From contig JAZNAQ010000022.1 in the NCBI GenBank assembly GCA_045586595.1, forward strand, positions 1,605 through 65,604: DNA of 64,000 nt, written 5' to 3'. The position numbers were made by a program, and so were the translations under genes. How positions within the stretch are numbered: position 1 is the stretch's first letter; each line of letters starts with the position of its first letter. Source of the stretch: Eubacteriales bacterium. GTDB taxonomy: Bacteria; Bacillota; Clostridia; Oscillospirales; JAAYXM01. Under the pieces are notes generated by a model. It was not told the DNA's origin, did not search any database, and was given only the letters and a program-made list of their open reading frames with translations. Positions 34,161 to 63,633 of the stretch are shown here, one piece after another.

Positions 34161-34208
34161 AAAAACTGCAACAATAAGAAGCCCTATTACGGGCCCTTAT
34201 TATTGCAG
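34161..34208 (-). terminator. Intrinsic terminator after the GGDEF gene
   Basis: On the minus strand, a roughly 18-bp stem CTGCAATAATAAGGGCCC...GGGCTTCTTATTGTTGCAG followed by U5. Confidence 0.75.
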
Positions 34209-34327
34209 CTGGACTGGCATAGTATAAAACCTTAGCCTCTTGGCTTTGCGTCGCCGACTTTCGCCGGTTTTGCCAAATGTTCAATTTTCACCAGTTTATC
34301 ACACTAAAGCATTTTTGTCAAACACTT

Positions 34328-49203: not shown

Positions 49204-49210
49204 ACTATAC

Positions 49211-49246
49211 AAAAGGCTCTGTACTGTGTCGGGTACAGAGCCTTTT
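49211..49246. terminator. Bidirectional terminator (end of the ilvE-oxidoreductase operon)
   Basis: AAAAGGCTCTGTAC-TGTGTCGG-GTACAGAGCCTTTT. Confidence 0.85.
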
Positions 49247-49255
49247 GATTTTGTT

Positions 49256-49789: not shown

Positions 49790-49791
49790 AA

Positions 49792-50544
49792 TTATGCTTC
49801 CTCCTTCTGTGCGCTCTTGTCTCTGTAAACACCGAGCGGATAGTATGGAATCATCTTCTCGTCTACCCACTTGAGAGCGTCATTCGGAGTCATACCCCAG
49901 TTTGTCGGGCAGGTAGAGACAACCTCGATAAGAGAGAATCCCTTTCCCTCAACCTGATTGCGAAACGCCTTGAGAATTGCCTTACCCGCAGCCTTTACAT
50001 TTTTAACGCTGTTTACTGCAACACGCTCAATATACTCAGGTCCGTCGAGAGTTGAGAGCATTTCGCTGACTCTTATCGGGTAGCCTGCTGTTGTTACATC
50101 ACGCCCGTACGGAGATGTCTGAGTTACCTGGCCGGGGAGTGATGTCGGGGCCATCTGGCCTCCGGTCATACCGTAGATTGCGTTATTTACAAATATAACG
50201 GTAATGTTTTCATTACGAGCTGCTGCGTGGACTGTCTCTGCCATACCGATTGAGGCAAGGTCTCCGTCGCCCTGATATGTAAAGATAACATTCTCAGGGA
50301 AAGCTCGCTTAAGGCCCGTTGCGACAGCCGGAGCACGGCCGTGAGCCGCCTCTACCATATCGCATGAAAAGTAATCATATGCCATAACAGAGCATCCGAC
50401 CGGTGCGACACCGATTGTCTTGCCCTCTACGCCGAGTGCGTCAATCGCCTCAGCAACAAGGCGGTGAATAATGCCGTGGGTGCAGCCCGGGCAGTAGTGA
50501 AGCGGTGCGTCTGTTAAGCTTTTCGGTTTTTCAAATACTACCAT
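49792..50544 (-). CDS. 2-oxoacid:ferredoxin oxidoreductase, beta (TPP-binding) subunit
   Basis: 250 aa with YCPGCTHG and the GDGD TPP motif. Confidence 0.88.
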   Translation of the reverse strand: MVVFEKPKSLTDAPLHYCPGCTHGIIHRLVAEAIDALGVEGKTIGVAPVGCSVMAYDYFSCDMVEAAHGRAPAVATGLKRAFPENVIFTYQGDGDLASIGMAETVHAAARNENITVIFVNNAIYGMTGGQMAPTSLPGQVTQTSPYGRDVTTAGYPIRVSEMLSTLDGPEYIERVAVNSVKNVKAAGKAILKAFRNQVEGKGFSLIEVVSTCPTNWGMTPNDALKWVDEKMIPYYPLGVYRDKSAQKEEA

Positions 50545-51605
50545 TAGTTGCTACCTCCCTTGACTTCTTTAATTTTTTCAAGAACCTGCTCAGGTGACGG
50601 AATCATGCCGCCGACGCGGTTACAGAGATGAACAGGCTTTTTGCAGTCTGTTGCAAGGCGGATGTCTTCAATCATCTGGCCCATTGAAAGCTCAACGCTG
50701 ATAAATGCCTGTACCTTATCTGCAGCCTCAGCAAGCGGTGCCTTCGGGAACGGCCATACGGTAATCGGGCGAATCATACCGACCTTTATACCCTCTTTTC
50801 GTGCTGCAACAACTGCGTTCTTTGCAACACGGGCAGCGATACCGAATGCGACAACACAGTACTCTGCATCATCCATCATAAAGCTTTCGTATCTTGCCTC
50901 TGTCTCTTCTATAAGCTTATATCTCTCATAGCGCTCGATATTCTTCTGCTCGAGCTCTTCAGGCTTTAAGTAGAGCGAGTTTATGATGTTATGCTCGCGC
51001 TTCATATCAGTTCCGGTTACTGCCCACGGCTTATCTGTTGTATTAACGCTTTCTTCAGGAAGCTCAACCGGCTCCATCATCTGCCCCATTGTGCCGTCTG
51101 CAAGAAGCATAGCAGGCATACGATATTTTTCGGCAAGCTCAAACGCAAGAGCTGTCATATCAGCCATTTCCTGAACGGATTCAGGTGTAAGGACTATCAT
51201 GCGATAGTCGCCGTGACCTCCGCCCTTTGTTGACTGGAAGTAGTCTGACTGAGACGGCTGGATGCCGCCGAGACCGGGGCCGCCGCGCTGTACGTTAACG
51301 ATAAGTGCCGGAAGGTCTGCACCTGCAATATAGGAGATACCCTCCTGCTTAAGCGAGATACCGGGGCTTGAGGAGGAGGTCATAACACGCTTGCCTGTAC
51401 CCGCAACTCCGTATACCATATTAATAGCCGAGATTTCACTCTCTGCCTGGAGGAATGTCCCCCCGATTTTCGGCATTCTCTTTGCCATGTATGCCGCAAC
51501 CTCTGTCTGCGGTGTTATCGGATAACCGAAGTAATGGCGACAGCCCGCACGGATAGCGGCTTCTGCGATTGCTTCGTTACCTTTCATCAAAACTTTTTCT
51601 GCCAT
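50544..51605 (-). CDS. 2-oxoacid:ferredoxin oxidoreductase, alpha subunit
   Basis: About 353 aa from MAEKVLMKGNEAIAEAA, with RBS GAGGTG 8 nt upstream. Typical VOR/KOR alpha N-terminus. Confidence 0.88.
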   Translation of the reverse strand: MAEKVLMKGNEAIAEAAIRAGCRHYFGYPITPQTEVAAYMAKRMPKIGGTFLQAESEISAINMVYGVAGTGKRVMTSSSSPGISLKQEGISYIAGADLPALIVNVQRGGPGLGGIQPSQSDYFQSTKGGGHGDYRMIVLTPESVQEMADMTALAFELAEKYRMPAMLLADGTMGQMMEPVELPEESVNTTDKPWAVTGTDMKREHNIINSLYLKPEELEQKNIERYERYKLIEETEARYESFMMDDAEYCVVAFGIAARVAKNAVVAARKEGIKVGMIRPITVWPFPKAPLAEAADKVQAFISVELSMGQMIEDIRLATDCKKPVHLCNRVGGMIPSPEQVLEKIKEVKGGSN

Positions 51606-51617
51606 TTTCCGCACACC

Positions 51618-51824
51618 TCACTTTTCTACCTTGATTACGCAGTCCGGGCACATAGTTGCACAGAATGCGCAAGCGATACATTTCTCCTGGTCGGTTATCT
51701 CCGCCGGAGAATGACCCTTTTTGTTGATTTTGTCTTTTGCAAGACGGATTATCCCCTTCGGACAAGCTGTAACACAAAGGCCACAACCCTTACAAATGTC
51801 CGAGTCGAATGTTACCTTAGCCAT
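51618..51824 (-). CDS. 2-oxoacid:ferredoxin oxidoreductase, delta subunit (2x[4Fe-4S] ferredoxin)
   Basis: 68 aa with two CxxCxxCxxxCP motifs. Confidence 0.88.
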   Translation of the reverse strand: MAKVTFDSDICKGCGLCVTACPKGIIRLAKDKINKKGHSPAEITDQEKCIACAFCATMCPDCVIKVEK

Positions 51825-51845: not shown

Positions 51846-52514
51846 TTAAAATAATTTTTCTTGTAATTTGAGTTTAAAGAAAGACGTATTTTGCGCCTGC
51901 TCGCAAAGATTCTTTTCTGATGTTGTCATAACAACGGGAACGCCGGATATTTCCGCAAGTTCTTCAGCAAATGCCAAGGTGTTCACAACATCGTCGATTG
52001 TCGTCTCGACCCCGATATTGGAGTTATTGACAATCCCCGTAAACGGAATCCCCGATGCTGTTTCTATCTCGCGAAAAACCTCAAGCGCTTCTTTTGCCGT
52101 ACGCGTAAGCGGGCGATAGAAGTTTACAACGAACAGGTTTGCAAAGTCGTTCTCTTCTAAAATATACGGACGGTATCTGCCAAGAGCATACGCACCGCGG
52201 TCATCGCCGCCTATGTCCATAACAACCCGGCGGTCTCTCCTCTGCACAAGGCCATAGACCTCCTGCGGAAGCGAGGGCAAATCTACGCTTGTGTTTGCAA
52301 ACGGTAGCGCAATAACCTCAACACCTGCATCGGTAAGCTCTTTTAAGCTATCCTTTGTGCGGAAATACGGATTTACAATATCAATATCAGCGATACTTAC
52401 GGGAAAACCTTTCTCGCTTAAGTGGAGCGCATAGTTTACCGCGATGTTGGTTTTGCCGCTGCCGTAGTGGCCGCAGAAAAGAGTAACTCTTTTATTTAAA
52501 GCGTGATTGTCCAA
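51846..52514 (-). CDS. MinD/CooC-like P-loop NTPase, function unknown
   Basis: 222 aa with a deviant Walker A (GHYGSGKTN). Embedded between ilvE and the delta subunit, overlapping ilvE by 19 nt. Confidence 0.5.
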   Translation of the reverse strand: MDNHALNKRVTLFCGHYGSGKTNIAVNYALHLSEKGFPVSIADIDIVNPYFRTKDSLKELTDAGVEVIALPFANTSVDLPSLPQEVYGLVQRRDRRVVMDIGGDDRGAYALGRYRPYILEENDFANLFVVNFYRPLTRTAKEALEVFREIETASGIPFTGIVNNSNIGVETTIDDVVNTLAFAEELAEISGVPVVMTTSEKNLCEQAQNTSFFKLKLQEKLF

Positions 52515-53563
52515 TTAAACTTATCCTCACACTTGCCCCACTGAATACCTGTGATGGTGTCATAGAGCTTCTGGCTGACCTCGCCTATTGTGTTGTTATT
52601 GATAAGCATAACATCGTCTTTATAACGAAGCTTACCAACCGGCGAGATTACGGCTGCCGTGCCTGTTCCGAAGCACTCTTCAAGCTTGCCGCTCTTCTGT
52701 GCATTTAAAAGCTCCTCAACGCTTATTTTGCGTTCCTCAACCTCATATCCCCAGGACTTACATACCTCAATTACCGAGTTTCTTGTGATACCCGGCAGAA
52801 TGCTGCCGGAGTGCTCCGGGGTTACGATTTTGCCGTCAATCTTAAAGAAGATGTTCATAGCACCGACTTCTTCGATGTACTTTCTCTCTACACCGTCAAG
52901 CCAGAGAACCTGTGAATAGCCCTCGTCGTGAGCCTTGACCTGAGCCGCAAGAGAAGCTGCGTAGTTACCGCCTGTCTTTGCAAAGCCCATACCGCCCTTG
53001 ACAGCGCGGACATAGTCGTCTTCAATCCAGATACCTACAGGAGCAAGGCCGCTTGCGTAATATGCGCCTGACGGAGAAAGGATGATGATAAAGAGATATG
53101 TCTTTGACGGTGCAACACCGAGGAACTCGTCTGTTGCGATGATAAACGGTCTTATGTAGAGCGATGTGCCGGGGGCTGTGGGTATCCAATCCTCATCAAC
53201 CTTGACAACTGCTTTACATGCCTCTACAAAAAGCTCCTCAGGAAGCTGAGGGATGCAAAGACGCTCGTTTGTGGCGTTTGTTCTCTTTGCGTTCATATCA
53301 GGTCTGAAAAGGCGAGCCTTTCCGTCACGTCCTCTGTATGCCTTAAGGCCTTCAAACATTTCCTGACCGTAGTGGAAAACCATTGCGGACGGGTCGAGAG
53401 AGAGCTTCTCATACGGGACTATTCTCCCGTCGTGCCAGCCTTTTCCCTCGGTATAGTTCATAACAAACATATGGTCTGTAAACACCTTGCCAAAGCCGAG
53501 CTTTGACTCATCTTCTGGTCGCTGTTTAGGATTTGTTGTTTTTGTTATCGGAAAATTATACAT
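52496..53563 (-). CDS. ilvE: Branched-chain amino acid aminotransferase
   Basis: 355 aa, fold-type IV PLP enzyme (long IlvE form) with motifs FEGLKAY, GGNYAASL and GITR. Confidence 0.9.
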   Translation of the reverse strand: MYNFPITKTTNPKQRPEDESKLGFGKVFTDHMFVMNYTEGKGWHDGRIVPYEKLSLDPSAMVFHYGQEMFEGLKAYRGRDGKARLFRPDMNAKRTNATNERLCIPQLPEELFVEACKAVVKVDEDWIPTAPGTSLYIRPFIIATDEFLGVAPSKTYLFIIILSPSGAYYASGLAPVGIWIEDDYVRAVKGGMGFAKTGGNYAASLAAQVKAHDEGYSQVLWLDGVERKYIEEVGAMNIFFKIDGKIVTPEHSGSILPGITRNSVIEVCKSWGYEVEERKISVEELLNAQKSGKLEECFGTGTAAVISPVGKLRYKDDVMLINNNTIGEVSQKLYDTITGIQWGKCEDKFNWTITL

Positions 53564-53588: not shown

Positions 53589-55877
53589 TCACAGCTTATT
53601 TCTCTGAATCTTTCCGCTTACTGTCTTGGGCAGCTCGTCACGGAATACGACGAGGCGCGGATATTTATACGGAGCTGTATGCTCTTTAACATAGTTCTGA
53701 ATCTCTTTCTTGAGTTCTTCTGTAGGCTCTGTGCCCTTTGTAAGAACGATACTTGCCTTTACTATCTGGCCGCGAACCTCATCAGGTGCTGCAGAAACGC
53801 CACACTCAAGGACGTACGGAAGCTCCATGATAACGCTTTCAATCTCAAACGGCCCGATGCGGTAGCCGGATGACTTGATAACGTCATCAACACGGCCGAC
53901 ATACCAATAGAAGCCGTCCTCATCACGCCATGCGGTATCTCCTGTGTGATAGTATCCGTCGTGGAGAACCTCAAGAGTTTTTTCCTCGTCGCGGTAGTAC
54001 TCAACAAAGAGGCCGCAGGGCTTGCCGTTCTTTACGTTAATTACGATTTCGCCGGTCTCACCGACAGCTACGGGCTCGCCTTTGTCATTTACAAGCTCAA
54101 CATTGTATATCGGAGCAGGCTTACCCATAGAACCAATTTTGTGCGGAGCACCTATCATGTTACCGATAATCATTGTGCTCTCTGTCTGGCCAAAGCCCTC
54201 AATTATCTGAAGGCCTGTTGCCTTTTCAAATTGCTTATAGACCTCGGGGTTTAAAGCCTCGCCCGCTGTTGACATATGCTTGACAGACGAGAAGTCATAC
54301 TGCGAAATATCTTCTTTAACAAGCATACGAAGCATTGTAGGCGGTGCGCAGAAGGTCGTGATGTTATGACGCGCAAACATCGGAAGAATTTCTTTCGCAT
54401 CAAAGCGGTCAAAGTCATAAACGAATATTGCCGCCTCGCAAAGCCACTGGCCGTAGAGCTTACCCCACATAGACTTTGCCCAGCCTGTATCTGAAATTGT
54501 GAAGTGTAGCCCATCAGGGTCAACATTGTGCCAATACTTTGCTGTATGGAAGTGACCGAGCGGATATTTATGGTTGTGTGCCGCAATCTTCGGGTATCCG
54601 GTAGTGCCGGATGTAAAGAACATCAGAAGCAAATCATCGCCGCACGGTGAATCATCGTTTCTTTCAAAGTGTGAGCTGTATAGCGGGTACTCGTCAGCAA
54701 AGCTTCTCCAACCCTCACGCTCGCCACCGACTATAATCTTATGTATAAGCTCAGGGCAGGTCTTTGCCGCCTCATCTACCTGTGCGGTACACTCTCCGTC
54801 TGCCGTGCAGAGGATTGTGTTTACGCCCGCCGCCTGAAAACGATACTCAAAGTCATGAACCTGAAGCTGGTTTGTGGCGGGGATAGCGATTGCGCCGAGC
54901 TTATTAAGACCAATCATAGCATACCAGAATTCGTAATGACGCTTCAGTACGAGCATAACTCTGTCGCCTTTTTTGATACCGAGTGACTTAAAGTAGTTTG
55001 CGCATCTTGCTGATTCACGCTTTACATCCTCAAAAGTAATGCGGCGTTCTACTTTATTCTTGTCGATATGAAGCATCGCAAGCTTATCAGGCTCGCGTTC
55101 TGCCAAAGCATCTACAAGGTCGAAAGCAAAGTTAAAGTTTTCGGTGTTTTTAAACTCAATCTTTGTAGGTGTTCCCTTTTCGTTCTCTTCAACAGAAATA
55201 TACTTACGGTAAATTCTGTCCTTAGTGTCACGCTTGACCTCGCGGGGATCGTCGATAGCTTTTATCGGAGTAAGCTCAGGAATGGGCTCACCTGACGGAT
55301 TCAAAACGATTGCATAGAAAACACAATCACGACCGTTTACGGCAATCATACCGTGTGGGGTATTACTGTCAAAGTAAATGCTGTCACCCGCGCGGAGAAC
55401 CTCGCGGTGCTCGCCTATCTGAACCATAAGCTCGCCCTCAACGACTATGTCACACTCCTGACCATCGTGAGTGGTAAGCTCAATATCGCGGTTTTGCGCG
55501 CTCTCATCATAAGCACATCTGACGTAGAGCGGCTCTGCGATTCTGTTCTGAAAAGCATATGCAAGGTTATAATATGTCATGCCATGAGCATTTGCTATTT
55601 CCTGCCCCAAACCGTTTCTTGTAACCGTAAACGATTTAAGAGTAGGGCTGTAGCCCTCAATAATATCTGTTACGTTAACACGCAATGCAAGCGCGCAACG
55701 GTAAAGGAATGCAAAGTTAAGGTCTTGCTTGCCTTCTTCACACAAAATATACTCTTCAACCGAAACATCGGTCTTTTCGGCCATCTCTGCCGGGGTCAAC
55801 CCCTCAATCTCACGAAGTTCGCGTATACGAGATGCCATCTCTTGAATTTTGTAGTCAAGTCCTGATATAGGTTGCAT
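53589..55877 (-). CDS. XRE-HTH + cupin + medium/short-chain acyl-CoA synthetase (AMP-forming) fusion, paralog 1 (behind the Val T-box)
   Basis: 762 aa from ATG 55877 (MQPISG..., RBS GAAAGGATGG). HTH (LTPAEMAEKTDVSVEEY), cupin (GDSIYFDSNTPHGMIA), then AMP-binding motifs FTSGTTGYPK, YHTGDTAWRDEDGFYWYVGRVDDVIKSSGYRIGPFEIE and SGKIQR. Confidence 0.85.
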   Translation of the reverse strand: MQPISGLDYKIQEMASRIRELREIEGLTPAEMAEKTDVSVEEYILCEEGKQDLNFAFLYRCALALRVNVTDIIEGYSPTLKSFTVTRNGLGQEIANAHGMTYYNLAYAFQNRIAEPLYVRCAYDESAQNRDIELTTHDGQECDIVVEGELMVQIGEHREVLRAGDSIYFDSNTPHGMIAVNGRDCVFYAIVLNPSGEPIPELTPIKAIDDPREVKRDTKDRIYRKYISVEENEKGTPTKIEFKNTENFNFAFDLVDALAEREPDKLAMLHIDKNKVERRITFEDVKRESARCANYFKSLGIKKGDRVMLVLKRHYEFWYAMIGLNKLGAIAIPATNQLQVHDFEYRFQAAGVNTILCTADGECTAQVDEAAKTCPELIHKIIVGGEREGWRSFADEYPLYSSHFERNDDSPCGDDLLLMFFTSGTTGYPKIAAHNHKYPLGHFHTAKYWHNVDPDGLHFTISDTGWAKSMWGKLYGQWLCEAAIFVYDFDRFDAKEILPMFARHNITTFCAPPTMLRMLVKEDISQYDFSSVKHMSTAGEALNPEVYKQFEKATGLQIIEGFGQTESTMIIGNMIGAPHKIGSMGKPAPIYNVELVNDKGEPVAVGETGEIVINVKNGKPCGLFVEYYRDEEKTLEVLHDGYYHTGDTAWRDEDGFYWYVGRVDDVIKSSGYRIGPFEIESVIMELPYVLECGVSAAPDEVRGQIVKASIVLTKGTEPTEELKKEIQNYVKEHTAPYKYPRLVVFRDELPKTVSGKIQRNKL

Positions 55878-55905
55878 AATAAGCCATCCTTTCACGGAAC
55901 GAATT

Positions 55906-56191
55906 AAAAAGCACTCGTCCCAAAGCTGATAATCTTTGAGACGAGTGTCAGAATTTCTAATACACCCGCGGTACCACTCAAATTGCGCTTTACGCGCCAC
56001 TCAGACTCAAACAAGCCGTATGCATTTACGCAGCAGTCACGGAAAGGTTCTACTCGCCTTATATAAGACTTTCTTCCTCTCAGCTCAGAAGCTACAGACA
56101 CAAGTAACAATGCCGATAGTTCACACCCACCACTATCTCTCTGAAGGACTGTACACTCACGCTCTCTTCGTCAACGCCTTTATATTCATTT
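55906..56191 (-). promoter_or_regulatory. T-box riboswitch, specifier GUA (Val)
   Basis: Promoter TTGACA (56226-56221), 17 nt spacer, TATAAT (56203-56198). Stem I has the GA motif UUGACGAAG, AGAGAG bulge and a GGUG distal loop. Specifier loop GUCU-GUA-G-CUUC (codon at plus 56093-56095). CCGUGA F-box. T-box UUUGAGUGGUACCGCGGG (55965-55984). Terminator CACUCGUC...GACGAGUG plus U5 (55906-55947). Confidence 0.85.
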
Positions 56192-56278
56192 GTGGTTATT
56201 ATATATCAGTCAAGGGAATTTGTCAATACCTATTTGTGGCATATTATGAGTTTTTATGCGAGTTTTTGCGATTATCTA

Positions 56279-58546
56279 TCAAAGTTTATTCCTCTGAATT
56301 TTACCGCTTATTGTCTTGGGGAGTTCATCACGGAATACAACAAGGCGCGGGTATTTATACGGCGCTGTATGCTCCTTGACGTAGTTCTGGATTTCTTTCT
56401 TAAGCTCTTCCGTCGGCTCCGTCCCCTTTGTAAGAACAATGCTTGCCTTTACAATCTGACCGCGGAGCTCATCGGGAGCTGCAGAAACGCCGCACTCGAG
56501 AACATACGGAAGCTCCATAATGACACTCTCAATCTCACACGGCCCGATGCGGTAACCGGATGATTTGATAACATCGTCAATTCGGCTGACATACCAGAAA
56601 TAGCCGTCCTCATCACGCCATGCGGTATCTTCTGTGTGGTACATTCCGCCACGCATACACTCTTCCATTTTTTCTTCATCATCAAGATACTGTCTGAAGA
56701 GGCCAACAGGAGTTCCGTTATCAAGGCGTACAACAATTTCACCGACCTCACCATTTGCAACCGGGTTGCCGTCGAGGTCAACAATATCAATATCATACTG
56801 CGGAGATGCCTTGCCCATTGCGCCTACGCGCGGAGTCGTACCATAGAGGTTTGCGATAACAAGGGTTGTTTCTGTTTGGCCGAAGCCCTCCATTATCTTA
56901 AGGCCTGTTGCCTTTTCAAATTGCTTATACACTTCGGGGTTGAGTGCCTCTCCTGCTGTTGTCATATGGTGGATGGAGGAAAGGTCGTATTTTGAAAGGT
57001 CTTCTTTTATGAACATACGAAGCATTGTTGGCGGCGCGCAGAAGGTTGTGATGTTGTATTTTGCAAACATCGGGAGAATTTCGTTTGCAGAAAAGCGGTC
57101 AAAGTCGTAAACGAATACTGCCCCCTCGCAGAGCCATTGGCCATAGAGCTTACCCCAGAGGGATTTGCCCCAGCCTGTGTCAGAGATTGTAAAGTGGAGC
57201 CCATCACGCTCGCAGCAGTGCCAGTATTTTGCAGTCACAAAGTGACCAAGGCCGTATGTGTGCTTATGCTCGACCATTTTCGGGTTACCTGTTGTTCCCG
57301 ACGAGAAGAACATAAGAGCCGCCTCATCGCCGCAGGGGGTATCATCGCTTCTGTCAAAGTGGCTTGAGAACATTGCATATTCGCTGTCAAAATCATGCCA
57401 GCCATCGCGATGACCGCCGACAAGTACAAGAGTTTTTACACTCGGGCATTTCTTTGCTGCAGCCTCTGCGATTGTAGCCGTATCATCATCAGCGGTGCAG
57501 ACAACAGCCTTTACGTTTGCCGCCTCATAGCGGTATACAAAGTCGTGGTCCTTAAGCTGATGTGTTGCAGGGATTGCAACAGCACCGAGCTTATGAAGCG
57601 CAACCATCGCAAACCAGAACTGATAATGGCGCTTGAGAACAAGCATTACGCGGTCACCCTGACCGATGCCGAGTGACTTGAAATAGTTTGCACATCGTGC
57701 CGATTCTTTTCTTATATCATCAAATGTAAAGCGGCGCTCAACCATGTTCTTGTCAACATGGAGCATCGCAAGCTTATCGGGAGTTTTCTTTGCAATTTCG
57801 TCGACAACATCGAAGCCGAAGTTGAATGTATCAGTATTCATAAACTCGATTTTTTCGAGTACGCCCGGCTCGCTCTCTGTACATTTTACAAACTTCTCAC
57901 ACGCGAGCTTTGTTGCCGGACGAAGAGATACAACGCTCTCGCGCACTTCTTCTTCCTTTGCATCCTCTCCAGGGAGAACTACTGCACAGAATACGCAGTC
58001 TTCACCGTTTACAGCTATCATACCGTGCGGTGTGGAGCTGTTATAGTAGATGCTGTCACCCTCGCTTAAAACTTCGGTGTGAGTGCCGACCTGAACCTTG
58101 AGCGAGCCCTTGAGAACGAGGTCAAACTCCTGCCCGCTATGCTTTGTAAGGTGTATCGGCTTATTCTGCTGCTCCTCAGAGTATTCATATCTTACCCAAT
58201 AGGGCTCAGCTATTTTGTTTTTAAACTTCGGGGCAAGGTTTGAAATGCTGATACCCTCCTCTTTAGCCGTCTCCTGCCCCTTGCCCTTACGAGTTACGGT
58301 GTAAGAGGAAAGATGCGCCGTGCGGCCCTCCAAAAGTTCTGTAAGCTCAATACCAAAGGCAAGCGCGCATTTGTGAAGAAACGAGAACGGCATATCCGCC
58401 GCACCGTTTTCGAACTTTTTGTATTCATCAAGTGTTACTTCGGTTTTCTCTGCCATCTGGTTTGCAGTCATACCCATAACCTCACGCATCTCACGGATGC
58501 GGGCTGCAACCTCGCCGAGTTGTGTCATAGTTTTTTCTGTGCTCAT
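56279..58546 (-). CDS. XRE-HTH + cupin + acyl-CoA synthetase (AMP-forming) fusion, paralog 2 (behind the Ile T-box)
   Basis: 755 aa from ATG 58546 (MSTEKT..., RBS AAAGGAG). Same architecture as paralog 1, with the C-terminal ~85 aa nearly identical. Confidence 0.85.
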   Translation of the reverse strand: MSTEKTMTQLGEVAARIREMREVMGMTANQMAEKTEVTLDEYKKFENGAADMPFSFLHKCALAFGIELTELLEGRTAHLSSYTVTRKGKGQETAKEEGISISNLAPKFKNKIAEPYWVRYEYSEEQQNKPIHLTKHSGQEFDLVLKGSLKVQVGTHTEVLSEGDSIYYNSSTPHGMIAVNGEDCVFCAVVLPGEDAKEEEVRESVVSLRPATKLACEKFVKCTESEPGVLEKIEFMNTDTFNFGFDVVDEIAKKTPDKLAMLHVDKNMVERRFTFDDIRKESARCANYFKSLGIGQGDRVMLVLKRHYQFWFAMVALHKLGAVAIPATHQLKDHDFVYRYEAANVKAVVCTADDDTATIAEAAAKKCPSVKTLVLVGGHRDGWHDFDSEYAMFSSHFDRSDDTPCGDEAALMFFSSGTTGNPKMVEHKHTYGLGHFVTAKYWHCCERDGLHFTISDTGWGKSLWGKLYGQWLCEGAVFVYDFDRFSANEILPMFAKYNITTFCAPPTMLRMFIKEDLSKYDLSSIHHMTTAGEALNPEVYKQFEKATGLKIMEGFGQTETTLVIANLYGTTPRVGAMGKASPQYDIDIVDLDGNPVANGEVGEIVVRLDNGTPVGLFRQYLDDEEKMEECMRGGMYHTEDTAWRDEDGYFWYVSRIDDVIKSSGYRIGPCEIESVIMELPYVLECGVSAAPDELRGQIVKASIVLTKGTEPTEELKKEIQNYVKEHTAPYKYPRLVVFRDELPKTISGKIQRNKL

Positions 58547-58597
58547 TGCATTTTCTCCTTTCAAATTAAAAACCTTAAAATTTTTAATTGAATAACA

Positions 58598-58879
58598 AAG
58601 ACTCGTCTCAAAGCTTTTATACTTTGAGACGAGCCGAATAAACTATATCCGATACCCGCGGTACCACTCAAATTGCGCTTTACGCGCCACTCAGGCTCAA
58701 ACAAGCCTTATGCATTAACGCAGCAATCACGGAAAGCGTCTACTCGTCAAATCAAACTTTCGGGCTTCCAGCTCAGAAGTGATAGGCAAAAAACATTTCG
58801 CTACCGGGATTACACCGTCCCCGACTCTCTGTAAGCTACCTTGCTTTTCCGTCTTCGTCATAGCCTTTGCTATTCAATT
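58598..58879 (-). promoter_or_regulatory. T-box riboswitch, specifier AUC (Ile)
   Basis: Promoter TTGACA (58914-58909), 17 nt spacer, TAAACT (58891-58886). Stem I has AUGACGAAG, AGAGAG and a GGUGUAA distal loop. Specifier loop GCCU-AUC-A-CUUC (plus 58781-58783). T-box UUUGAGUGGUACCGCGGG (58655-58674). Terminator GGCUCGUCUCAAAG...CUUUGAGACGAGUC plus U run (58598-58635). Confidence 0.85.
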
Positions 58880-58924
58880 GAATACAGTTTACACCTGTTT
58901 TTTCTCTTTGTCAAGACCTTTTTG

Positions 58925-61384
58925 TTATTTTTTAAGACCAAGAATTTTCTCTGATTCCTCACGCATTTTATATTTAAGAATCTTACCCGCGGCGTTCATT
59001 GGGAACTCATTGACAAACAAGAAATATCTCGGCACCTTATGGCGCGCGATAGACGCGTTTCCGAACTCGCGCATCTCTGCCTCGTCGGAGGTTTCGCCCT
59101 TATGGAGAATAATCCACGCGCAACATTCCTCACCGTAACGCTCATCGGGAACTCCTACAATCTGAACATCTCGTATCTTCGGATTTGTCAGGTAGAACTC
59201 CTCAATTTCACGCGGATAGAGGTTTTCGCCACCGCGGATAATCATGTCCTTAAGTCGGCCTGTTACCTTATAATATCCGTCAGGCGTACGGCAACAAATA
59301 TCACCGGAGTGAAGCCAGCCGTCAGCATCAATAGTCTGTGCTGTTGCGTTGGGCATTTTGTAGTAGCCCTTCATTATGTTAAAGCCTCGCGCAACAAACT
59401 CGCCGCTCTCACCGTCAGGAAGCTCCTCACCCGTTTCAGGATCAATGACCTTACACTCAACACCCGGGAAAGCACTTCCGACAGTCTCGACCCTGTGGTC
59501 GAGGTCTTCATTAACCTCTCCCATGGTACAGCCGGGAGAAGCCTCAGTCTGGCCGTAAACGGAGATAATCTCGCGCATATTCATCTCAACAGAGGCACGG
59601 CGCATAAGGTCAGCAGGGCAGTTTGCTCCCGCCATGATGCCCGTACGCATATATGAAAAATCTGTCTTTTCAAAGTCAGGGTGGTTAAACATTGCGATAA
59701 ACATAGTAGGAACACCGTTAAAGCATGTGATATGCTCATCGTTAACGCACGCAAGTGACGATTTCGGTGAGAAGTACGGCATCGGGCAAAGCGTGCCGCC
59801 GTGAGTCATCATTGACGTCATCGAAAGCACCATTCCGAAGCAGTGGAACATCGGCACCTGAATCATCATTCGATCGGCAGTGGAAAGGTCCATCCTGTCA
59901 CCGATTGTCTTGCCGTTGTTTACAATATTTCTGTGTGTGAGCATAACGCCCTTCGGGAAACCGGTTGTACCTGAGGTGTATTGCATATTACATACATCGT
60001 CAGGCTTTACCATTGATGCACGACGGCGTACCTCCTCCTTCGGAACAAGTGCCGCGCGGTCAAGCATCTGCCCCCATGTAAGACAGCCGTGCATAGAGAA
60101 GCCAGCAGTAACAACATTGCGTAAAAACGGCAACTTTTTTGAGTAAAGCGCATCGCCCGGCTTCATATTTTCAAGCTCGGGGCAAAGCTCCTGGATGATT
60201 TCGCGGTAGTTTATATCCTTGCAGTCCTCAATCATAACAAGTGTATGGGTGTCAGACTGCTTTAGCAGATACTCAATCTCGTGGATTTTATATGCTGTAT
60301 TAACTGTTACAAGAACTGCCCCTATTTTAGTTGTTGCCCAGAAGGTTATGAACCACTGAGGAACATTTGTAGCCCATACTGCAACATGGTCGCCCGCTTT
60401 TACGCCGAGCGAAATAAGCGCCGCAGCGCACTCGTCGACATCACGCCGAAACTGTGAATATGTCCTTGTATAGTCGAGCGTAGTATACTTAAACGCATAC
60501 TGGTCAGGATAAGTCTCCGCCATGGTATCAAGCACCTGCGAGAAGGTCTTATCTATAACATCATACTTTTTCCATACAAATGTGCCTGTTCCCGCACGGT
60601 TATAATACAACTTATCATACTCTTTCTTCTCGCGTGAAAGGTTTGCAATATAGTTTGCAAAATGAGTAAGAACGATGTCTGCATCATTTATCTCGTCATT
60701 CCATGCAACCGATACAAAGCCGTCGAAGTTAAGAGACGAAAGTGCGTTTATAAACTCGGTTACAGGAAGAGAGCCTTCACCGATGAGGACGTTTTGTCCG
60801 TCCTTCTTATCGCCGAGGCGTACATACTTAATATATGCGCCAAGGTTTGTAATTGTTTTCTCCGCGCTCTCGCCTGCGCCGAAGTATGTTTCGCGGACAT
60901 TCCATGACGCGCCAACTACTGCAGAAGAAAAGAAATTGATAATATCAATGACATTCTCGGTTGCAGAGAGGTGTCCTGCAGTTTCAAGAAGAATCTGAAT
61001 ATCTGTTTCTTCAGCGCGTTTGATTGCCGGAGCGAGCTTTTTTGAAAGTTCTTCGTTTGACATTTTCTCCTCTATCCTGAGGATAATGCGCTCAACACCG
61101 GCGCTTGAAGCCATATTGACATATTTGAGTATTTCATCTGCGCTTGCATAATCACTTCCTGCATCATGAGGATATACAAGAGCGGATACCTCAAGCCCGC
61201 GATTTACGAGTTTTCTCTTTGCATCGGCCACTCTGTCACTGCGGAGAATGCTGTCGTAGTGCTTCTTTCTTTCACCAAGAGCGTCATAAATCTCAAACCC
61301 CGAATAACCGTAGTCATATGCATAACGACACATATCGAGAAACGACGGGCGGTTTACATTTTTTGTCGAAAAGGTAAGCTTCAT
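58925..61384 (-). CDS. Xylose-isomerase-like TIM-barrel domain fused to a FadD-type AMP-forming acyl-CoA ligase
   Basis: 819 aa from ATG 61384 (MKLTFSTK; RBS GAGGAGGA lies inside the upstream gene's end). The N-terminal ~260 aa are AP-endonuclease-2/sugar-isomerase-like. The C-terminal part carries YTSGTTGFPKGV, YGQTE, GWLHSGD and RGGENLYPREIE. Confidence 0.75.
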   Translation of the reverse strand: MKLTFSTKNVNRPSFLDMCRYAYDYGYSGFEIYDALGERKKHYDSILRSDRVADAKRKLVNRGLEVSALVYPHDAGSDYASADEILKYVNMASSAGVERIILRIEEKMSNEELSKKLAPAIKRAEETDIQILLETAGHLSATENVIDIINFFSSAVVGASWNVRETYFGAGESAEKTITNLGAYIKYVRLGDKKDGQNVLIGEGSLPVTEFINALSSLNFDGFVSVAWNDEINDADIVLTHFANYIANLSREKKEYDKLYYNRAGTGTFVWKKYDVIDKTFSQVLDTMAETYPDQYAFKYTTLDYTRTYSQFRRDVDECAAALISLGVKAGDHVAVWATNVPQWFITFWATTKIGAVLVTVNTAYKIHEIEYLLKQSDTHTLVMIEDCKDINYREIIQELCPELENMKPGDALYSKKLPFLRNVVTAGFSMHGCLTWGQMLDRAALVPKEEVRRRASMVKPDDVCNMQYTSGTTGFPKGVMLTHRNIVNNGKTIGDRMDLSTADRMMIQVPMFHCFGMVLSMTSMMTHGGTLCPMPYFSPKSSLACVNDEHITCFNGVPTMFIAMFNHPDFEKTDFSYMRTGIMAGANCPADLMRRASVEMNMREIISVYGQTEASPGCTMGEVNEDLDHRVETVGSAFPGVECKVIDPETGEELPDGESGEFVARGFNIMKGYYKMPNATAQTIDADGWLHSGDICCRTPDGYYKVTGRLKDMIIRGGENLYPREIEEFYLTNPKIRDVQIVGVPDERYGEECCAWIILHKGETSDEAEMREFGNASIARHKVPRYFLFVNEFPMNAAGKILKYKMREESEKILGLKK

Positions 61385-61385
61385 C

Positions 61386-62774
61386 TTAATCCTCCTCAAA
61401 CACTATCTTATTCAGCGCGTTGATATACGCTCTGATGCTTGCTGCCACAATATCAGTAGAGATTCCGTTGCCGGAATAGAGTTTTCCATCCACGCGAAGC
61501 TTTACAACAGCCGAGCCAAGAGCCTCCTTGCCCTCAGTAACGGCATGGATCTGGAAATCGTCAAGCTCATAGTGATAGCCTATGCACTGTTCTATTGCAC
61601 GAAATGCTGAGTCTACAGCGCCGTCACCCATACTTACGCCGCAGAGAATTTCGTCACCGCACTTGAGCGTAACCTGTGACATGGCACTTGTGAGATTGCC
61701 GCAGTTTGTGGTGTAGCTCTCAAGGTGATATGTTGACGGTGCCTGCATGGCAGAGCTTGCTATAAGTGCCTCAAGCTCCTTCGCGCCGACTGTGCTCTTC
61801 TTCTCGCATACCTGCACAAGAGCACGGTATACATTTCCGTTATCCTCATCGGAAAGGTCATATCCGAGAACCTTTGCAGCCTGTGCAACATCTGAAAGCG
61901 TACTGTCGCAATCAAGAACGATTTTTTTCTTCTCACTTGCAGCATCTGCGCTCTCGTAAGCATCATGATTTATCTTTCGGAGCATCTCATCTACACTTGA
62001 ATGTATCTGGGTAGCTACAATAGAAGTGGATATGCCGAGAGCTTCGCCTCTTGCGCTTATTGCGTCAGAGAGCTCGCCTACAGACAAAACATTCTTTCCT
62101 GCCATCGCACACTTAAGCCCGTCAGCCCCTGCCTTTACCGCAGCAATAGCAGTTGCAACAGCCATATTGATACTGTCGGATACCTGAACATATACCGATG
62201 TGTTTACCTGAGCCTTTATTGCAGCGGTAAGCTCTGCAATCTCCTCAGGAAGTGAAACTCCGGCGTCGTCGCAGATAGTTACGATTCCTGCGCCGCTTGC
62301 CTCAGCCGCTTTAACTGCATTAATAATGAAGTCACGGTCTGCACGAGTTGCATCAAGTGCAACAAATTCGACATCGGGGCAGAATTTCTTTGCCTCGGCT
62401 ACAAGCTCTTCAATCTTTGTAAGCATCTTATCTGCCTTGAGATGATATATATACTCCATCTGCACCGTAGAAGTAGGGAGGGCTACCTGAAGGCGCGGCT
62501 TTGCTGCATCTTTTATACACTCCCATGCGACAGACACCTCGTCTGCCGTAAAGCCGACAGGGAGAGCGACTGCGCTGCTTTTAACGTTTGATGCAATCGT
62601 TTTATAAATAATTGTATCCTCGCGAACATTCTTTATTGGCGCAAGCTCAACAGCATCCGCACCGAGAGAATCTGCACACGCCGCTATAGCTGTTTTCTCT
62701 CTGAAGAGCAGTGAAACCTCACGGTCTTGTGAAAGCTCCTTTAACGTGATGTCAGTAACTAAAATTTTCTTCAT
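61386..62774 (-). CDS. 2-isopropylmalate synthase (LeuA) homolog lacking the catalytic and metal-binding residues but retaining the C-terminal LeuA regulatory domain
   Basis: 462 aa, collinear with recalled B. subtilis LeuA. DTTLRDGEQ is replaced by DITLKELSQ, HCHDD by QVSDS, and GIGERAGN by GKNVLSVG. The C-terminus (TEGKEALGSAVVKL...GISTDIVAASIRAYINALNKI) matches the LeuA_dimer domain. Confidence 0.7.
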   Translation of the reverse strand: MKKILVTDITLKELSQDREVSLLFREKTAIAACADSLGADAVELAPIKNVREDTIIYKTIASNVKSSAVALPVGFTADEVSVAWECIKDAAKPRLQVALPTSTVQMEYIYHLKADKMLTKIEELVAEAKKFCPDVEFVALDATRADRDFIINAVKAAEASGAGIVTICDDAGVSLPEEIAELTAAIKAQVNTSVYVQVSDSINMAVATAIAAVKAGADGLKCAMAGKNVLSVGELSDAISARGEALGISTSIVATQIHSSVDEMLRKINHDAYESADAASEKKKIVLDCDSTLSDVAQAAKVLGYDLSDEDNGNVYRALVQVCEKKSTVGAKELEALIASSAMQAPSTYHLESYTTNCGNLTSAMSQVTLKCGDEILCGVSMGDGAVDSAFRAIEQCIGYHYELDDFQIHAVTEGKEALGSAVVKLRVDGKLYSGNGISTDIVAASIRAYINALNKIVFEED

Positions 62775-62820
62775 AGGTAAAACCCCTTTCTCTGCAATTT
62801 AAATTTTCAGATGTTCGACA

Positions 62821-63127
62821 AAAACGCTTTCATCTCTTTGTTATCCTTTAATAACTCAAAGAGACGAAAGCGTTAAAACTCAAGTATTTAAACCTTTCGC
62901 GGTACCACTCTTTTTCATCCTACGGCGAGGATGCACCTCAGGTGCTGACACACCTTGACTCTGTTACGGGAGCTCCCGTCCGCCCCTACTCTCTTTCAAT
63001 TTCACGGCAGCCGCTCCGTGGTGAGTTCAACGAGGCTAACCCAATGCCTTGCACCAACCGGCATCTCTCTGCGCGGGTATAAGCTTTTCGCATACTATTC
63101 CACATCATCGCGTTTGTTTTCAATTTG
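62821..63127 (-). promoter_or_regulatory. T-box riboswitch, specifier CUC (Leu)
   Basis: Promoter TTGACA (63162-63157), 17 nt spacer, TATAAT (63139-63134). Stem I has GCGAUGAUGUGG, the AGUA S-turn, AGAGAG and a GGUGCAA distal loop. Textbook specifier loop GAA-CUC-A-CCAC (plus 63023-63025). T-box AGAGUGGUACCGCGAAAGG (62896-62912). Terminator AACGCUUUC...GAAAGCGUU plus U4 (62821-62874). Confidence 0.9.
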
Positions 63128-63186
63128 GTAAACATTATATCACTGCATTTTTTGTTTGTCAACAGTTTTCAAAAAATTTTATTAAC

Positions 63187-63633
63187 CTAATTCGCGGCTT
63201 GTGTGTTAGATATTATTTCAATCAGTTTTTCATAAAAGCTATTATCCTGCTCTTTTGTGCGCTTGGGCGGGCCTTTGAGCCTGCCGCCTGCGTTTCTTAT
63301 TTTCTTTGCAGTATGGCGAGCAAGAAGCAGAGCGTCAATATTCTCATTTGTGTACTCAAGCCCATCCTGGTTTATACACACTGCCCCTCGAGAGAGCGCC
63401 ATAGAAGCAAGACCGTAGTCCTGCGTTATCACAACGTCACCTTTCGAAACAAAGTTTACAAGGGCAAAGTCCGCACTGTCTGCTCCCTTAGGAACAACAT
63501 GGGTCTCTGCACCGTTTTTATCAAATATATGTGCGGTATCACAAAATATGTGGCAGTCTTTTTTTAAGCTTTGCGCCGCTTTTATCGCAATATCAACAAC
63601 CGGGCATCCGTCGGCATCTATAAGCACTCGCAC
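63187..63633 (-). CDS. YaiI/YqxD (UPF0178, DUF188) family protein
   Basis: 148 aa with the family-typical MRVLIDADGCPVV N-terminus. Confidence 0.78.
   Translation of the reverse strand: MRVLIDADGCPVVDIAIKAAQSLKKDCHIFCDTAHIFDKNGAETHVVPKGADSADFALVNFVSKGDVVITQDYGLASMALSRGAVCINQDGLEYTNENIDALLLARHTAKKIRNAGGRLKGPPKRTKEQDNSFYEKLIEIISNTQAAN

Follow-up and report, generated by a model that had tools for sequence, protein, structure and literature searches.

Rumen bacteria reportedly form branched-chain amino acids by reductive carboxylation of isoacids, a route described by Allison and co-workers in the 1960s-80s in which the acid is converted to an acyl-CoA, then to a 2-oxo acid by a ferredoxin-dependent OFOR, and then to the amino acid. 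That work was physiological and isotopic and dealt with classical isolates; as far as we found, it assigned no gene cluster, dedicated ligases or regulation. The carboxylation of isovalerate to leucine by rumen microbes is also cited in PMC7356843.

Class I transcriptional T-boxes of Firmicutes branched-chain amino acid genes (RF00230; for example the Bacillus subtilis ilv-leu Leu T-box, ileS, valS and leuS) combine a K-turn Stem I, a specifier followed by a purine, an AG bulge, a distal loop, a T-box with a UGGN bulge, and a competing terminator and antiterminator. CUC, AUC and GUA are the usual specifiers for branched-chain amino acids. Tandem and internal T-boxes also occur: some Bacillus trp operons have two T-boxes, and gltX-cysE-cysS has an internal one; to our knowledge, the tandem examples repeat one specificity inside one leader. 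T-box surveys list aminoacyl-tRNA synthetases, de novo biosynthesis genes and transporters as target categories (PMC2494555, PMC3766115), and the text and supplements covered make no mention of CoA ligases or ferredoxin oxidoreductases.

The locus described here lies on the minus strand of a 64,000-nucleotide stretch of DNA, referred to as the window. Its T-boxes share these class I elements, but the regulated genes are acyl-CoA ligases, with a 2-ketoisovalerate:ferredoxin oxidoreductase (VOR) and a branched-chain amino acid aminotransferase (BCAT) downstream. As with tandem T-boxes, more than one T-box lies on one transcription path, but here there are three specificities, each with its own promoter and enzyme gene, arranged head to tail. 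The predicted chemistry is that of the Allison pathway and the habitat is alike, nearly all of 80 related loci being rumen or hindgut MAGs, although the carriers are uncultured Oscillospirales-type Clostridia. A limited literature search found no earlier description of such an array, in keeping with the original prediction, which knew of none.

Three T-box leaders in series

The minus-strand order is leader 1, pseudo-LeuA, LigL; leader 2, LigI; leader 3, LigV; and then BCAT, a P-loop protein and VOR. The promoters and leaders are as follows.

63134 to 63162, minus strand: promoter P1 of the Leu leader, TTGACA-17-TATAAT, 12/12 matches, with a TG extension
62817 to 63117, minus strand: T-box leader 1, with the Leu specifier CUC at 63025-63023; Rfam RF00230 107 bits, Stem-I model R1 63.6 bits; Stem I with an AGUA/GAA S-turn, GAGUGGUACCGCG, and, ahead of a U-run, a terminator at about 62874-62822
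58886 to 58914, minus strand: promoter P2 of the Ile leader, TTGACA-17-TAAACT, 10/12 matches
58595 to 58870, minus strand: T-box leader 2, with the Ile specifier AUC at 58783-58781 and a terminator at 58635-58600; scores of 79.8 bits with Rfam (E 1.5e-16) and 72.1 bits with R1
56198 to 56226, minus strand: promoter P3 of the Val leader, TTGACA-17-TATAAT, 12/12 matches
55906 to 56183, minus strand: T-box leader 3, with the Val specifier GUA at 56095-56093 and a terminator at 55947-55912; scores of 79.6 bits with Rfam (E 1.7e-16) and 81.4 bits with R1

The original prediction had placed three T-boxes on this strand with these specifiers, and alignment to RF00230 confirms each at the same positions. 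Each lies behind its own promoter. It had also proposed an RF00230 search, which gave a divided result. All three leaders have a significant match on the minus strand (62857-63117, 58622-58870 and 55934-56183), but only leader 1 passes the gathering score of 93 bits. Leaders 2 and 3 fall under it, with full-length matches far beyond chance. Their lower scores are probably explained by a missing S-turn: the AGUA/GAA S-turn present in leader 1 is absent from the specifier loops of leaders 2 and 3 and of essentially all their orthologues, and the resulting compact loop sets these leaders apart from other class I T-boxes.

The remaining anatomy agrees with what had been read from the window. In the covariance-model alignment the specifiers CUC, AUC and GUA are followed by A, A and G, respectively, a purine in every case. 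All three leaders have GC..UGA / GAGC K-turn flanks, the CAGAGAG bulge, a GGUG distal loop, the conserved T-box sequence and a terminator with a U-run. The T-box bulge is UGGU throughout, which would match an A73 discriminator and so implies this base in the predicted cognate tRNAs. Neither the window nor 60 related loci contain a tRNA-Leu, tRNA-Ile or tRNA-Val gene. Minimum-energy folds contain terminator hairpins of 14-17 or more pairs with U-runs (-34, -37.1 and -29.4 kcal/mol for leaders 1 to 3; z -4.6 for leader 1), and in the covariance-model alignments the antiterminator 3' strand falls within the terminator 5' arms.

These features recur in a comparison set of 80 related loci or genomes from Clostridia MAGs, nearly all of rumen or gut origin. 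Model R1 identifies 159 elements in the window and the 80 loci. Across 148 distinct sequences, pairing in the modelled Stem I helices is kept at 99.3%, double changes occur in 12 of 12 pairs, and none of 500 shuffles matches this. Among 154 T-box motifs across the loci, 153 are accompanied by a partner strand for the antiterminator, and for 141 there is a U-run terminator with a stem of 8 bp or more. An equivalent promoter lies 35-55 nt upstream of Stem I in 27 of 32 orthologous Leu leaders, and such a promoter precedes 111 of the 115 leaders of the Ile- and Val-type ligases.

The genes behind the leaders

Each leader fronts an AMP-binding acyl-CoA ligase gene and the Leu unit is headed by a degenerate LeuA, both as originally predicted.

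61386 to 62774, minus strand: pseudo-LeuA, 462 aa; HMGL-like TIM barrel with a degenerate active site and an intact LeuA_dimer regulatory domain (Pfam)
58925 to 61384, minus strand: LigL, a fusion of a xylose-isomerase-like TIM barrel with an ANL acyl-CoA ligase from the PRK12583/FadD3-like clade
56279 to 58546, minus strand: LigI, 755 aa from ATG 58546; HTH(XRE)-cupin N-domain and Macs/MbcS-type short branched-chain acyl-CoA synthetase, Gly466 at the pocket position
53589 to 55877, minus strand: LigV, a LigI paralogue, 64% identical, Ala at the pocket position

Pseudo-LeuA shares the TIM-barrel fold and C-terminal LeuA_dimer domain of 2-isopropylmalate synthase LeuA. Alignment to the LeuA structure 3ewb shows that, unlike LeuA, it has lost the metal ligands (RDGEQ reads KELSQ and HxH reads Q.S) and that it carries a deletion of the GxGERxGN motif. 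No orthologue among 41 retains the metal Asp and the two His, and all 41 share the GxGERxGN deletion. The best LeuA score is 256 against a cut-off of 532, and every NCBIfam LeuA equivalog model scores far below its cut-off. Judged by these losses, pseudo-LeuA is a LeuA homologue that is catalytically dead. The TIM-barrel-ligase fusion always accompanies it, and in the window the two are translationally coupled: the LigL ATG lies 1 nt past the pseudo-LeuA stop, and the LigL ribosome-binding site lies within the pseudo-LeuA gene. From the Leu specifier alone we infer that LigL is an isovalerate-CoA ligase, the most tentative of the three substrate predictions; we found no close characterised relative of this protein.

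The predicted substrates of LigI and LigV are 2-methylbutyrate and isobutyrate, respectively. Both catalytic domains are closely related to MacsMa of Methanosarcina acetivorans and MbcS of Staphylococcus aureus, enzymes characterised on these two acids, and the known substrates match the Ile and Val specifiers. LigI has its best PDB match in MacsMa (3ETC, E 8e-183) over the whole catalytic domain, a fully conserved domain with about 60% identity to a working synthetase. MacsMa prefers 2-methylbutyrate (PMC10455477). MbcS is the top NCBIfam model for both proteins, although its equivalog NF047394 scores 434 for LigI and 443 for LigV, well under the cut-off of 850. MbcS accepts 2-methylbutyrate and isobutyrate, whereas isovalerate is hardly activated (PMC10026030); the use of another ligase family downstream of the Leu switch fits this. 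In contrast to MacsMa and MbcS, LigI and LigV bear a 235-residue HTH-cupin N-domain, are paralogues that differ from each other at one pocket residue, and are T-box-controlled neighbors of VOR and BCAT, whereas MbcS supplies lipid primers.

When 123 ligases are clustered into two groups, the grouping follows the specifiers in all cases but one. Ten positions separate LigI from LigV, and nine of these lie in the N-domain. The only one in the catalytic domain is position 466 (Gly in 69/69 LigI, Ala in 37/38 LigV), which aligns with the acetate-pocket residue Val310 of Acs; the smaller residue accompanies the larger C5 substrate. In an alignment to an Acs fragment, G562 corresponds to W414, placing Gly where Acs has its pocket Trp. 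This Trp-to-Gly replacement is stated for Macs in PMC10455477.

In about 80 genomes the pairing of specifier and gene never varies. Across 150 aligned Stem I sequences, the specifier column contains only ATC, GTA/GTC and CTC/CTG, plus one odd case, and within each gene class it varies only between synonymous codons. It tracks the downstream gene in 147 of 147 cases: AUC precedes the Ile-type ligase (69/69), GUA or GUC the Val-type ligase (46/46), and CUC or CUG pseudo-LeuA followed by LigL (32/32). The original prediction had named a different codon in the specifier loop as a ground for refutation; its assignment is upheld by this comparison, and the leader-ligase pairing that it proposed to look for in relatives is found in many rumen and gut Clostridia. 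The conservation itself went beyond that prediction and marks the arrangement as more than a one-off.

Downstream genes and the wiring of the locus

The genes from 53563 to 49256 give the array its metabolic meaning. They lie beyond the original prediction, which ended at 55906.

52496 to 53563, minus strand: BCAT (IlvE type II), 25 nt after LigV
51846 to 52514, minus strand: conserved MinD/Mrp-like P-loop NTPase with a GxxGSGKT motif
51618 to 51824, minus strand: VOR delta, a 68-aa 2x[4Fe-4S] ferredoxin with two CxxCxxCxxxCP motifs read from the translation
50544 to 51614, minus strand: VOR alpha (VorB); NCBIfam PRK07119 564.6 bits against a cut-off of 399, Pfam POR_N and PFOR_II
49792 to 50544, minus strand: VOR beta, TPP-binding; Pfam TPP_enzyme_C, NCBIfam PorB/KorB-type matches below cut-offs
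49256 to 49870, minus strand: VOR gamma; NCBIfam 2-oxoacid:ferredoxin oxidoreductase gamma over residues 28-202, below cut-off; true start probably about 27 codons into the ORF
49210 to 49247, no strand assigned: 16-bp palindromic hairpin with T-runs on both sides, the likely end of the transcription unit

All four VOR subunits are thus present. BCAT passes its NCBIfam cut-offs (PRK13357, 514.5 against 307; TIGR01123, 432.6 against 250). Four related loci have an ELFV Leu/Val dehydrogenase in its place, and no locus has both, a swap that fits conversion of a 2-oxo acid to an amino acid as the final step. The P-loop NTPase lies between ligase and VOR in nearly all loci, and the gene order ligase(s)-orf222-VOR-BCAT is kept in 49. 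The arrangement is widespread, with hundreds of matches, and is not unique to the present genome.

The units follow one another without intervening terminators, including between the LigL stop and P2, so that transcripts from an upstream promoter run into the next T-box. VOR and BCAT, which all three units would share, sit downstream of the Val switch, an odd wiring for a three-way pathway. With these genes behind the Val terminator, starvation for Leu or Ile only would induce the ligase alone, unless basal read-through or other gene copies suffice.

Predicted function and competing explanations

The cluster probably makes Leu, Ile and Val from isovalerate, 2-methylbutyrate and isobutyrate, with activation of each acid gated by its own amino-acid-specific T-box. 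Each leader would be transcribed from its own promoter. Uncharged cognate tRNA (Leu-GAG, Ile-GAU or Val-UAC) is predicted to pair with the Stem I specifier codon and, through its free NCCA end, with the UGGU bulge; this would stabilize the antiterminator and allow RNA polymerase to enter the ligase gene, whereas charged tRNA would leave the terminator to form. The induced ligase would spend ATP to make the acyl-CoA, which the shared ferredoxin-dependent VOR would reductively carboxylate to the 2-oxo acid; from this the shared aminotransferase, or in some relatives a Leu/Val dehydrogenase, would form the amino acid. VOR being reversible, we infer the anabolic direction of flux from the regulatory logic.

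That logic also bears on two readings in which VOR and BCAT work oxidatively. The acyl-CoA products could serve both fates, and the ligases might instead supply FabH with branched acyl-CoA primers for the branched-chain fatty acids of the membrane, the T-boxes sensing scarcity of branched-chain amino acids since these normally provide the primers. The leading NCBIfam model for LigI and LigV, MbcS, has just this proven role in branched-chain lipid priming (PMC10026030, PMC11167679). We nevertheless consider such salvage unlikely: a T-box senses tRNA charging and hence translation demand, an oxidative VOR and BCAT induced by starvation would consume the scarce amino acid, fab genes are absent from the conserved cluster, and the exchange of BCAT for a dehydrogenase points to interconversion of 2-oxo acids and amino acids as the conserved function. 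Stickland-like catabolism, with BCAT and VOR oxidizing branched-chain amino acids to acyl-CoAs and the ligases reversed or recycling acids, is very improbable. VOR and BCAT are the standard oxidative route of amino-acid fermenters and OFOR enzymes are reversible, but AMP-forming ligases are effectively irreversible towards acyl-CoA, and fermenters gain ATP via ADP-forming synthetases or a phosphotransacylase/kinase route (e.g. PMC3942289). Catabolism needs no three substrate-specific ligases, and induction by uncharged tRNA would start degradation just when the amino acid is short.

Two further readings concern individual components. LigI and LigV could be chiefly BirA-type transcription factors, adenylating enzyme and repressor in one, with T-boxes merely tuning the level of the regulator. 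Their N-domain matches XRE HTH and Cupin_2, a model of it resembles the HTH_3 regulator 1y9q, most positions separating the paralogues fall within it, and a weak AATTGAA motif recurs close to promoters. However, HppE, an enzyme without DNA binding, has the same fold, the putative operator motif occurs in only 18 of 115 leaders, and the catalytic domain is fully conserved and close in sequence to that of a working synthetase. A chiefly regulatory role is quite improbable, and it would be compatible with the main explanation, not an alternative to it. The sub-threshold Rfam scores and missing S-turn of leaders 2 and 3 would suit decaying or non-functional relics, leaving the Leu leader to work as an ordinary leuA T-box, leuA being a common T-box target (PMC2494555, PMC2700814). 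This is scarcely credible, and the conservation data already contradict it: orthologous ligases in 69 and 46 genomes have kept such a leader in front of them, with its promoter, specifier, T-box sequence and terminator, all modelled helices carry compensatory changes, and the supposed leuA is a pseudoenzyme in all 41 orthologues examined.

We therefore favor T-box-gated synthesis of the three amino acids from their branched acids. Most likely, a gut or rumen bacterium with this cluster rebuilds each branched-chain amino acid from its branched short-chain fatty acid under shortage.

T-box leaders and gene order in the window

Three T-box leaders lie in series on the minus strand, with the specifiers CUC (Leu, leader 1), AUC (Ile, leader 2) and GUA (Val, leader 3). 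The AMP-forming acyl-CoA ligases behind them are called LigL, LigI and LigV, respectively. An Rfam search of the whole window returned leader 1 as the sole T-box over the curated threshold (RF00230, 62857-63117, minus strand, 107 bits). A permissive Rfam scan of 55500-63400 gave full-length T-box matches for leader 2 (58622-58870, minus strand, 79.8 bits, E = 1.5e-16) and leader 3 (55934-56183, minus strand, 79.6 bits, E = 1.7e-16). Both are under the T-box gathering score of 93 yet far from chance; all three regions in which the original prediction placed a leader match the covariance model. When the model alignment is read against the sequence, the specifier position holds CUC at 63025-63023, AUC at 58783-58781 and GUA at 56095-56093, the same triplets at the same positions as first proposed, followed by A, A and G, respectively. 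K-turn flanks (GC..UGA and GAGC), the CAGAGAG bulge, the GGUG distal loop and GAGUGGUACCGCG are present in all three leaders. A terminator hairpin is the minimum-energy fold of the 3' part of leaders 1 to 3 (-34, -37.1 and -29.4 kcal/mol), and the 5' arm of each includes the antiterminator strand, as paired in the Rfam alignment. The Rfam matches, shared motifs, promoters and terminator folds together bear out the claim of three leaders. Promoters and long hairpins located by consensus scan are listed below with the genes, which were identified from Pfam and NCBIfam models.

Features of the cluster (window coordinates; genes and sites in minus-strand order)
63162-63134, minus strand: promoter of leader 1, TTGACA-17-TATAAT
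Behind leader 1, minus strand: pseudo-LeuA, 462-aa LeuA homologue with HMGL-like and LeuA_dimer domains
After pseudo-LeuA, minus strand: LigL, xylose-isomerase-like TIM barrel fused to an AMP-binding ligase
58914-58886, minus strand: promoter of leader 2, TTGACA-17-TAAACT
58635-58600, minus strand: long terminator hairpin of leader 2
56279-58546, minus strand: LigI, fusion of XRE-type HTH, cupin and AMP-binding ligase
56226-56198, minus strand: promoter of leader 3, TTGACA-17-TATAAT
55947-55912, minus strand: long terminator hairpin of leader 3
53589-55877, minus strand: LigV, LigI paralogue, 64% identical
After LigV, minus strand: branched-chain aminotransferase (BCAT), over the NCBIfam cut-off
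51846-52514, minus strand: P-loop NTPase (GxxGSGKT), 222 aa, weak MinD/Mrp/CFD1 similarity
After the P-loop gene, minus strand: ferredoxin, 68 aa, two [4Fe-4S] clusters
After the ferredoxin, minus strand: alpha, beta and gamma subunits of 2-ketoisovalerate:ferredoxin oxidoreductase (VOR); alpha scores 564.6 with the VorB model (cut-off 399)
49247-49210: palindromic terminator, likely end of the transcription unit

The array of one leader per branched-chain amino acid was confirmed, with its extent redrawn: the span originally predicted ended before BCAT, the P-loop gene, the ferredoxin and the VOR genes, into which the cluster continues past LigV. The consensus scan found no terminator-like site between LigL and promoter 2 or between LigI and promoter 3, and the gap from LigV to BCAT is only 25 nt; we therefore treat 63162-49210 as one nested transcription system. 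Its wiring is odd in that the shared VOR and BCAT genes of the window lie behind the Val terminator, so a transcript begun at the Leu or Ile promoter can reach them only through the switches that follow. If only Leu or only Ile were scarce, the ligase alone would rise, barring sufficient basal read-through or other copies of VOR and BCAT.

Elsewhere in the window, a c-di-GMP-I riboswitch aptamer lies at 34201-34284 on the minus strand (RF01051, 62.5 bits, gathering score 35), and a 926-aa protein at 45579-48359 matches c-di-GMP phosphodiesterase-type response regulators.

Conservation of the leaders and their neighbourhood

One genome per bacterial species was scanned with an alignment of the HTH-cupin-ligases (LigI and LigV), which gave at least 600 matches, and the best 80 loci were kept. 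Nearly all of these best 80 come from metagenome-assembled Clostridia of the rumen or hindgut, and carriers among them include Oscillospiraceae, Acutalibacteraceae, Christensenellaceae, Ruminococcus and Faecousia. The arrangement is widespread and is thus a family-level finding, not a peculiarity of the window.

A Stem I covariance model built from 51 leaders produced 159 matches in the window and the best 80 of the at least 600 loci. In an alignment of 150 of them, the bases modelled as partners can pair in 99.3% of cases and double (compensatory) changes occur in 12 of 12 pairs, values reached by none of 500 shuffles. The specifier column of these 150 reads ATC in 69, GTA in 42, CTC in 23, CTG in 10, GTC in 5 and an odd triplet in 1. 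The gene after each leader was classified independently by its best match to the window proteins. In the window and the best 80 of the at least 600 loci, ATC precedes a LigI-type gene (69/69), GTA or GTC a LigV-type gene (46/46), and CTC or CTG pseudo-LeuA with LigL (32/32). Specifier changes inside a gene class involve synonymous codons only, as expected if the triplet is read as a codon. Two-group average-linkage clustering of 123 ligases reproduces the split between ATC and GTA/GTC with one exception.

The remaining leader elements are also conserved. A promoter-like site precedes Stem I by 35-55 nt in 111 of the 115 HTH-cupin-ligase leaders and in 27 of the 32 Leu leaders. Among 154 T-box motifs across the loci, an antiterminator partner strand is present for 153, and 141 have a terminator with a U-run and a stem of 8 or more pairs. 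From the pairing, the promoters and the antiterminator/terminator conservation across loci, leaders 2 and 3 are conserved and in all likelihood functional, and a reading of the two as relics is very unlikely. The AGUA/GAA S-turn of the specifier loop is absent from their class, which probably costs them Rfam score. Cognate tRNA genes were found neither in the window nor in 60 related loci.

Two loci depart from the common pattern. In L046, whose genome has lost LigV, a T-box leader (12348-12451) stands directly before the P-loop, VOR and BCAT genes; its specifier column holds GCA (TGC one base earlier), with no purine next in the standard register. This leader may be a Val leader in decay or one turned to another target. 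L023, a contig binned as Sphaerochaetaceae, carries the cluster in full, with Ile T-box, HTH-cupin-ligase, BCAT and VOR. To our knowledge Spirochaetota is not a phylum known for T-boxes, and the cluster reflects either horizontal transfer or mis-binning.

One or more ligases are followed by the P-loop and VOR genes in 49 loci among the best 80 of the at least 600. BCAT lies within the cluster in 40 of the 49, and an amino acid dehydrogenase of the Glu/Leu/Phe/Val type replaces it in four loci (L057, L058, L063 and L076); no locus has both. This non-orthologous replacement points to conversion of 2-oxo acid to amino acid as the conserved last step. In nearly all related loci the P-loop gene keeps its place after the last ligase and ahead of the VOR genes, and its product may be an Fe-S maturation factor for VOR. 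An omega-amidase-like carbon-nitrogen hydrolase occurs in seven loci, directly beside BCAT in L023, L026, L070 and L075, one gene from it in L069 and several genes away in L041; the seventh is L071.

The Leu module (pseudo-LeuA and LigL) is mobile relative to the rest of the cluster. Its position may be upstream and in series, the arrangement of the window (for example L001, L006, L008, L028), divergent (for example L038 to L066) or downstream of BCAT (for example L014, L021, L030, L040, L078, L080), and it has its own Leu T-box wherever an adjoining Stem I element was called. An Amidohydro_2 gene is present in 17 loci, directly after LigL in L001, L006, L024, L050 and L052.

The ligases and their partner domains

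The catalytic domain of LigI matches PDB 3ETC (E = 8e-183), a Methanosarcina acetivorans synthetase that prefers 2-methylbutyrate as substrate (PMC10455477). For LigI as well as LigV the highest-ranking NCBIfam model is MbcS, and purified MbcS is active on 2-methylbutyrate and isobutyrate and poor on isovalerate (PMC10026030). This substrate pattern fits the cluster, which has two MbcS/Macs-type ligases behind the Ile and Val switches and a ligase of another clade behind the Leu switch (LigL, PRK12583/FadD3-like, 24% identity).

Only 10 positions discriminate LigI from LigV, when these are defined as at least 90% conserved within each paralogue group and different between groups. Nine lie in the HTH-cupin N-domain, and the sole catalytic discriminator is residue 466 (GW[G/A]KS). 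All 69 Ile-type enzymes have Gly at this position, and 37 of the 38 Val-type enzymes have Ala. We aligned LigI with what we take to be a fragment of E. coli/Salmonella acetyl-CoA synthetase, the numbering of which is self-consistent with the published pocket residues V310, T311, V386 and W414; in it, V310 stands opposite residue 466 and W414 opposite G562. The smaller side chain, Gly, occurs in the enzyme assigned the larger C5 acid, which is the expected direction, and we infer that residue 466 may act in substrate specificity. Over their C-terminal 95 residues, LigI and LigV share 98% identity as protein and 85% as DNA, with 66% DNA identity elsewhere. Recent gene conversion between units 2 and 3 is ruled out since the C-terminal DNA is only 85% identical, and the figures indicate that this subdomain is under strong purifying selection.

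The gene before LigL had been described as a dead LeuA, a description that its orthologues support. In an alignment with the Listeria LeuA structure 3ewb, RDGEQ is replaced by KELSQ and HxH by Q.S. Among 41 orthologues from related loci, none keeps the metal-binding Asp or either His, and all 41 have a deletion of GxGERxGN; what they do keep is the DATR motif and the regulatory domain at the C-terminus. Pseudo-LeuA scores far under the cut-offs of all NCBIfam LeuA equivalog models. Its gene invariably precedes LigL, and in the window its stop lies 1 nt ahead of the LigL start, with the LigL ribosome-binding site inside the pseudo-LeuA gene. The protein is a predicted conserved pseudoenzyme and probably a partner of LigL.

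The structure model of the HTH-cupin N-domain has a pLDDT of 62.8 and contains a disordered stretch (81-120) that holds five of the discriminating residues. Foldseek searches with this model returned generic HTH_3-cupin/HppE architectures only, and no ligand clue came from the matches. Of the 115 HTH-cupin-ligase leaders, 18 have the sequence AATTGAA(TA) after the -10 element and ahead of Stem I, as does 1 of the 32 Leu leaders (best 80 of at least 600 loci), and a perfect 12-nt palindrome, ATTCAATTGAAT, occupies this interval in leader 2 (58883-58872, minus strand). With 18 of 115 leaders, the motif is too weak for a conserved operator of the HTH domain; these sites are possible, though weak, candidate operators. 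In Bacteroidales of a plasmid collection, the cupin protein and the ligase are encoded by two adjacent separate genes without T-box or VOR, and the cupin-ligase partnership is therefore older than its T-box control. In Parabacteroides distasonis (NZ_OY725757.1, L081, 9004-11226), a cupin-domain gene adjoins an AMP-binding ligase next to proB/proA; this ligase is 46% identical to LigI, and neither VOR nor BCAT is nearby.

Proposed direction and meaning of the pathway

On the best-supported reading, the cluster salvages isovalerate, 2-methylbutyrate and isobutyrate (the isoacids) to make Leu, Ile and Val. Each isoacid would be activated to its acyl-CoA by a substrate-specific, ATP-consuming ligase, carboxylated reductively by VOR at the expense of ferredoxin, and transaminated to the amino acid. 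The ligase step would be switched on or off according to whether the cognate tRNA is uncharged or charged, with induction on starvation. The rumen and hindgut habitat of the carriers fits isoacid salvage, and a rumen precedent, the formation of leucine by carboxylation of isovalerate, is cited in a passage of PMC7356843.

Two points speak for an anabolic and against a fermentative direction: induction on starvation, and the fact that AMP-forming ligases are nearly irreversible. The acyl-CoAs may have a second use as lipid primers, the role of MbcS, which leaves co-transcription with VOR and BCAT unexplained.

The T-box mechanism itself is well understood, and the genes known to be under its control encode aminoacyl-tRNA synthetases, enzymes of de novo biosynthesis and transporters. 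Control of acyl-CoA ligases by T-boxes, each branched-chain amino acid having a switch of its own and the whole being wired to VOR and BCAT, appears undescribed. No description of T-box-controlled acyl-CoA ligases or VOR was found in the literature searched, which included two open T-box regulon surveys with their supplements and covered part of the T-box literature, so an earlier mention is possible; the result is consistent with the original view that no such array had been described.

Further leads are a natural one-residue (Gly/Ala) switch of pocket specificity, a conserved LeuA pseudoenzyme and a regulator-like domain fused to an enzyme. We tentatively propose, while holding it rather unlikely, that each ligase has a second, protein-level sensor of the end product: the HTH-cupin domain in LigI and LigV, and for LigL pseudo-LeuA, which keeps its leucine-binding regulatory domain and would dock on the TIM-barrel N-domain. 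If so, the committed ATP-consuming step would be doubly controlled, by tRNA charging and by free amino acid or 2-oxo acid, with the second layer acting allosterically or via DNA binding. The cluster would then also comprise all the genes, none of them assigned before, of the classical rumen route that leads from isoacids to branched-chain amino acids.

That rumen bacteria turn isoacids into branched-chain amino acids has been known physiologically for about 60 years, the original papers being those of Allison. The subject has a practical side: isoacids are fed to ruminants as additives and are required by many fibre-degrading Clostridia. The specifier codons would serve as internal substrate labels for three otherwise anonymous "AMP-binding proteins" and tie them to VOR and BCAT, which yields a testable gene-level model for this conversion.
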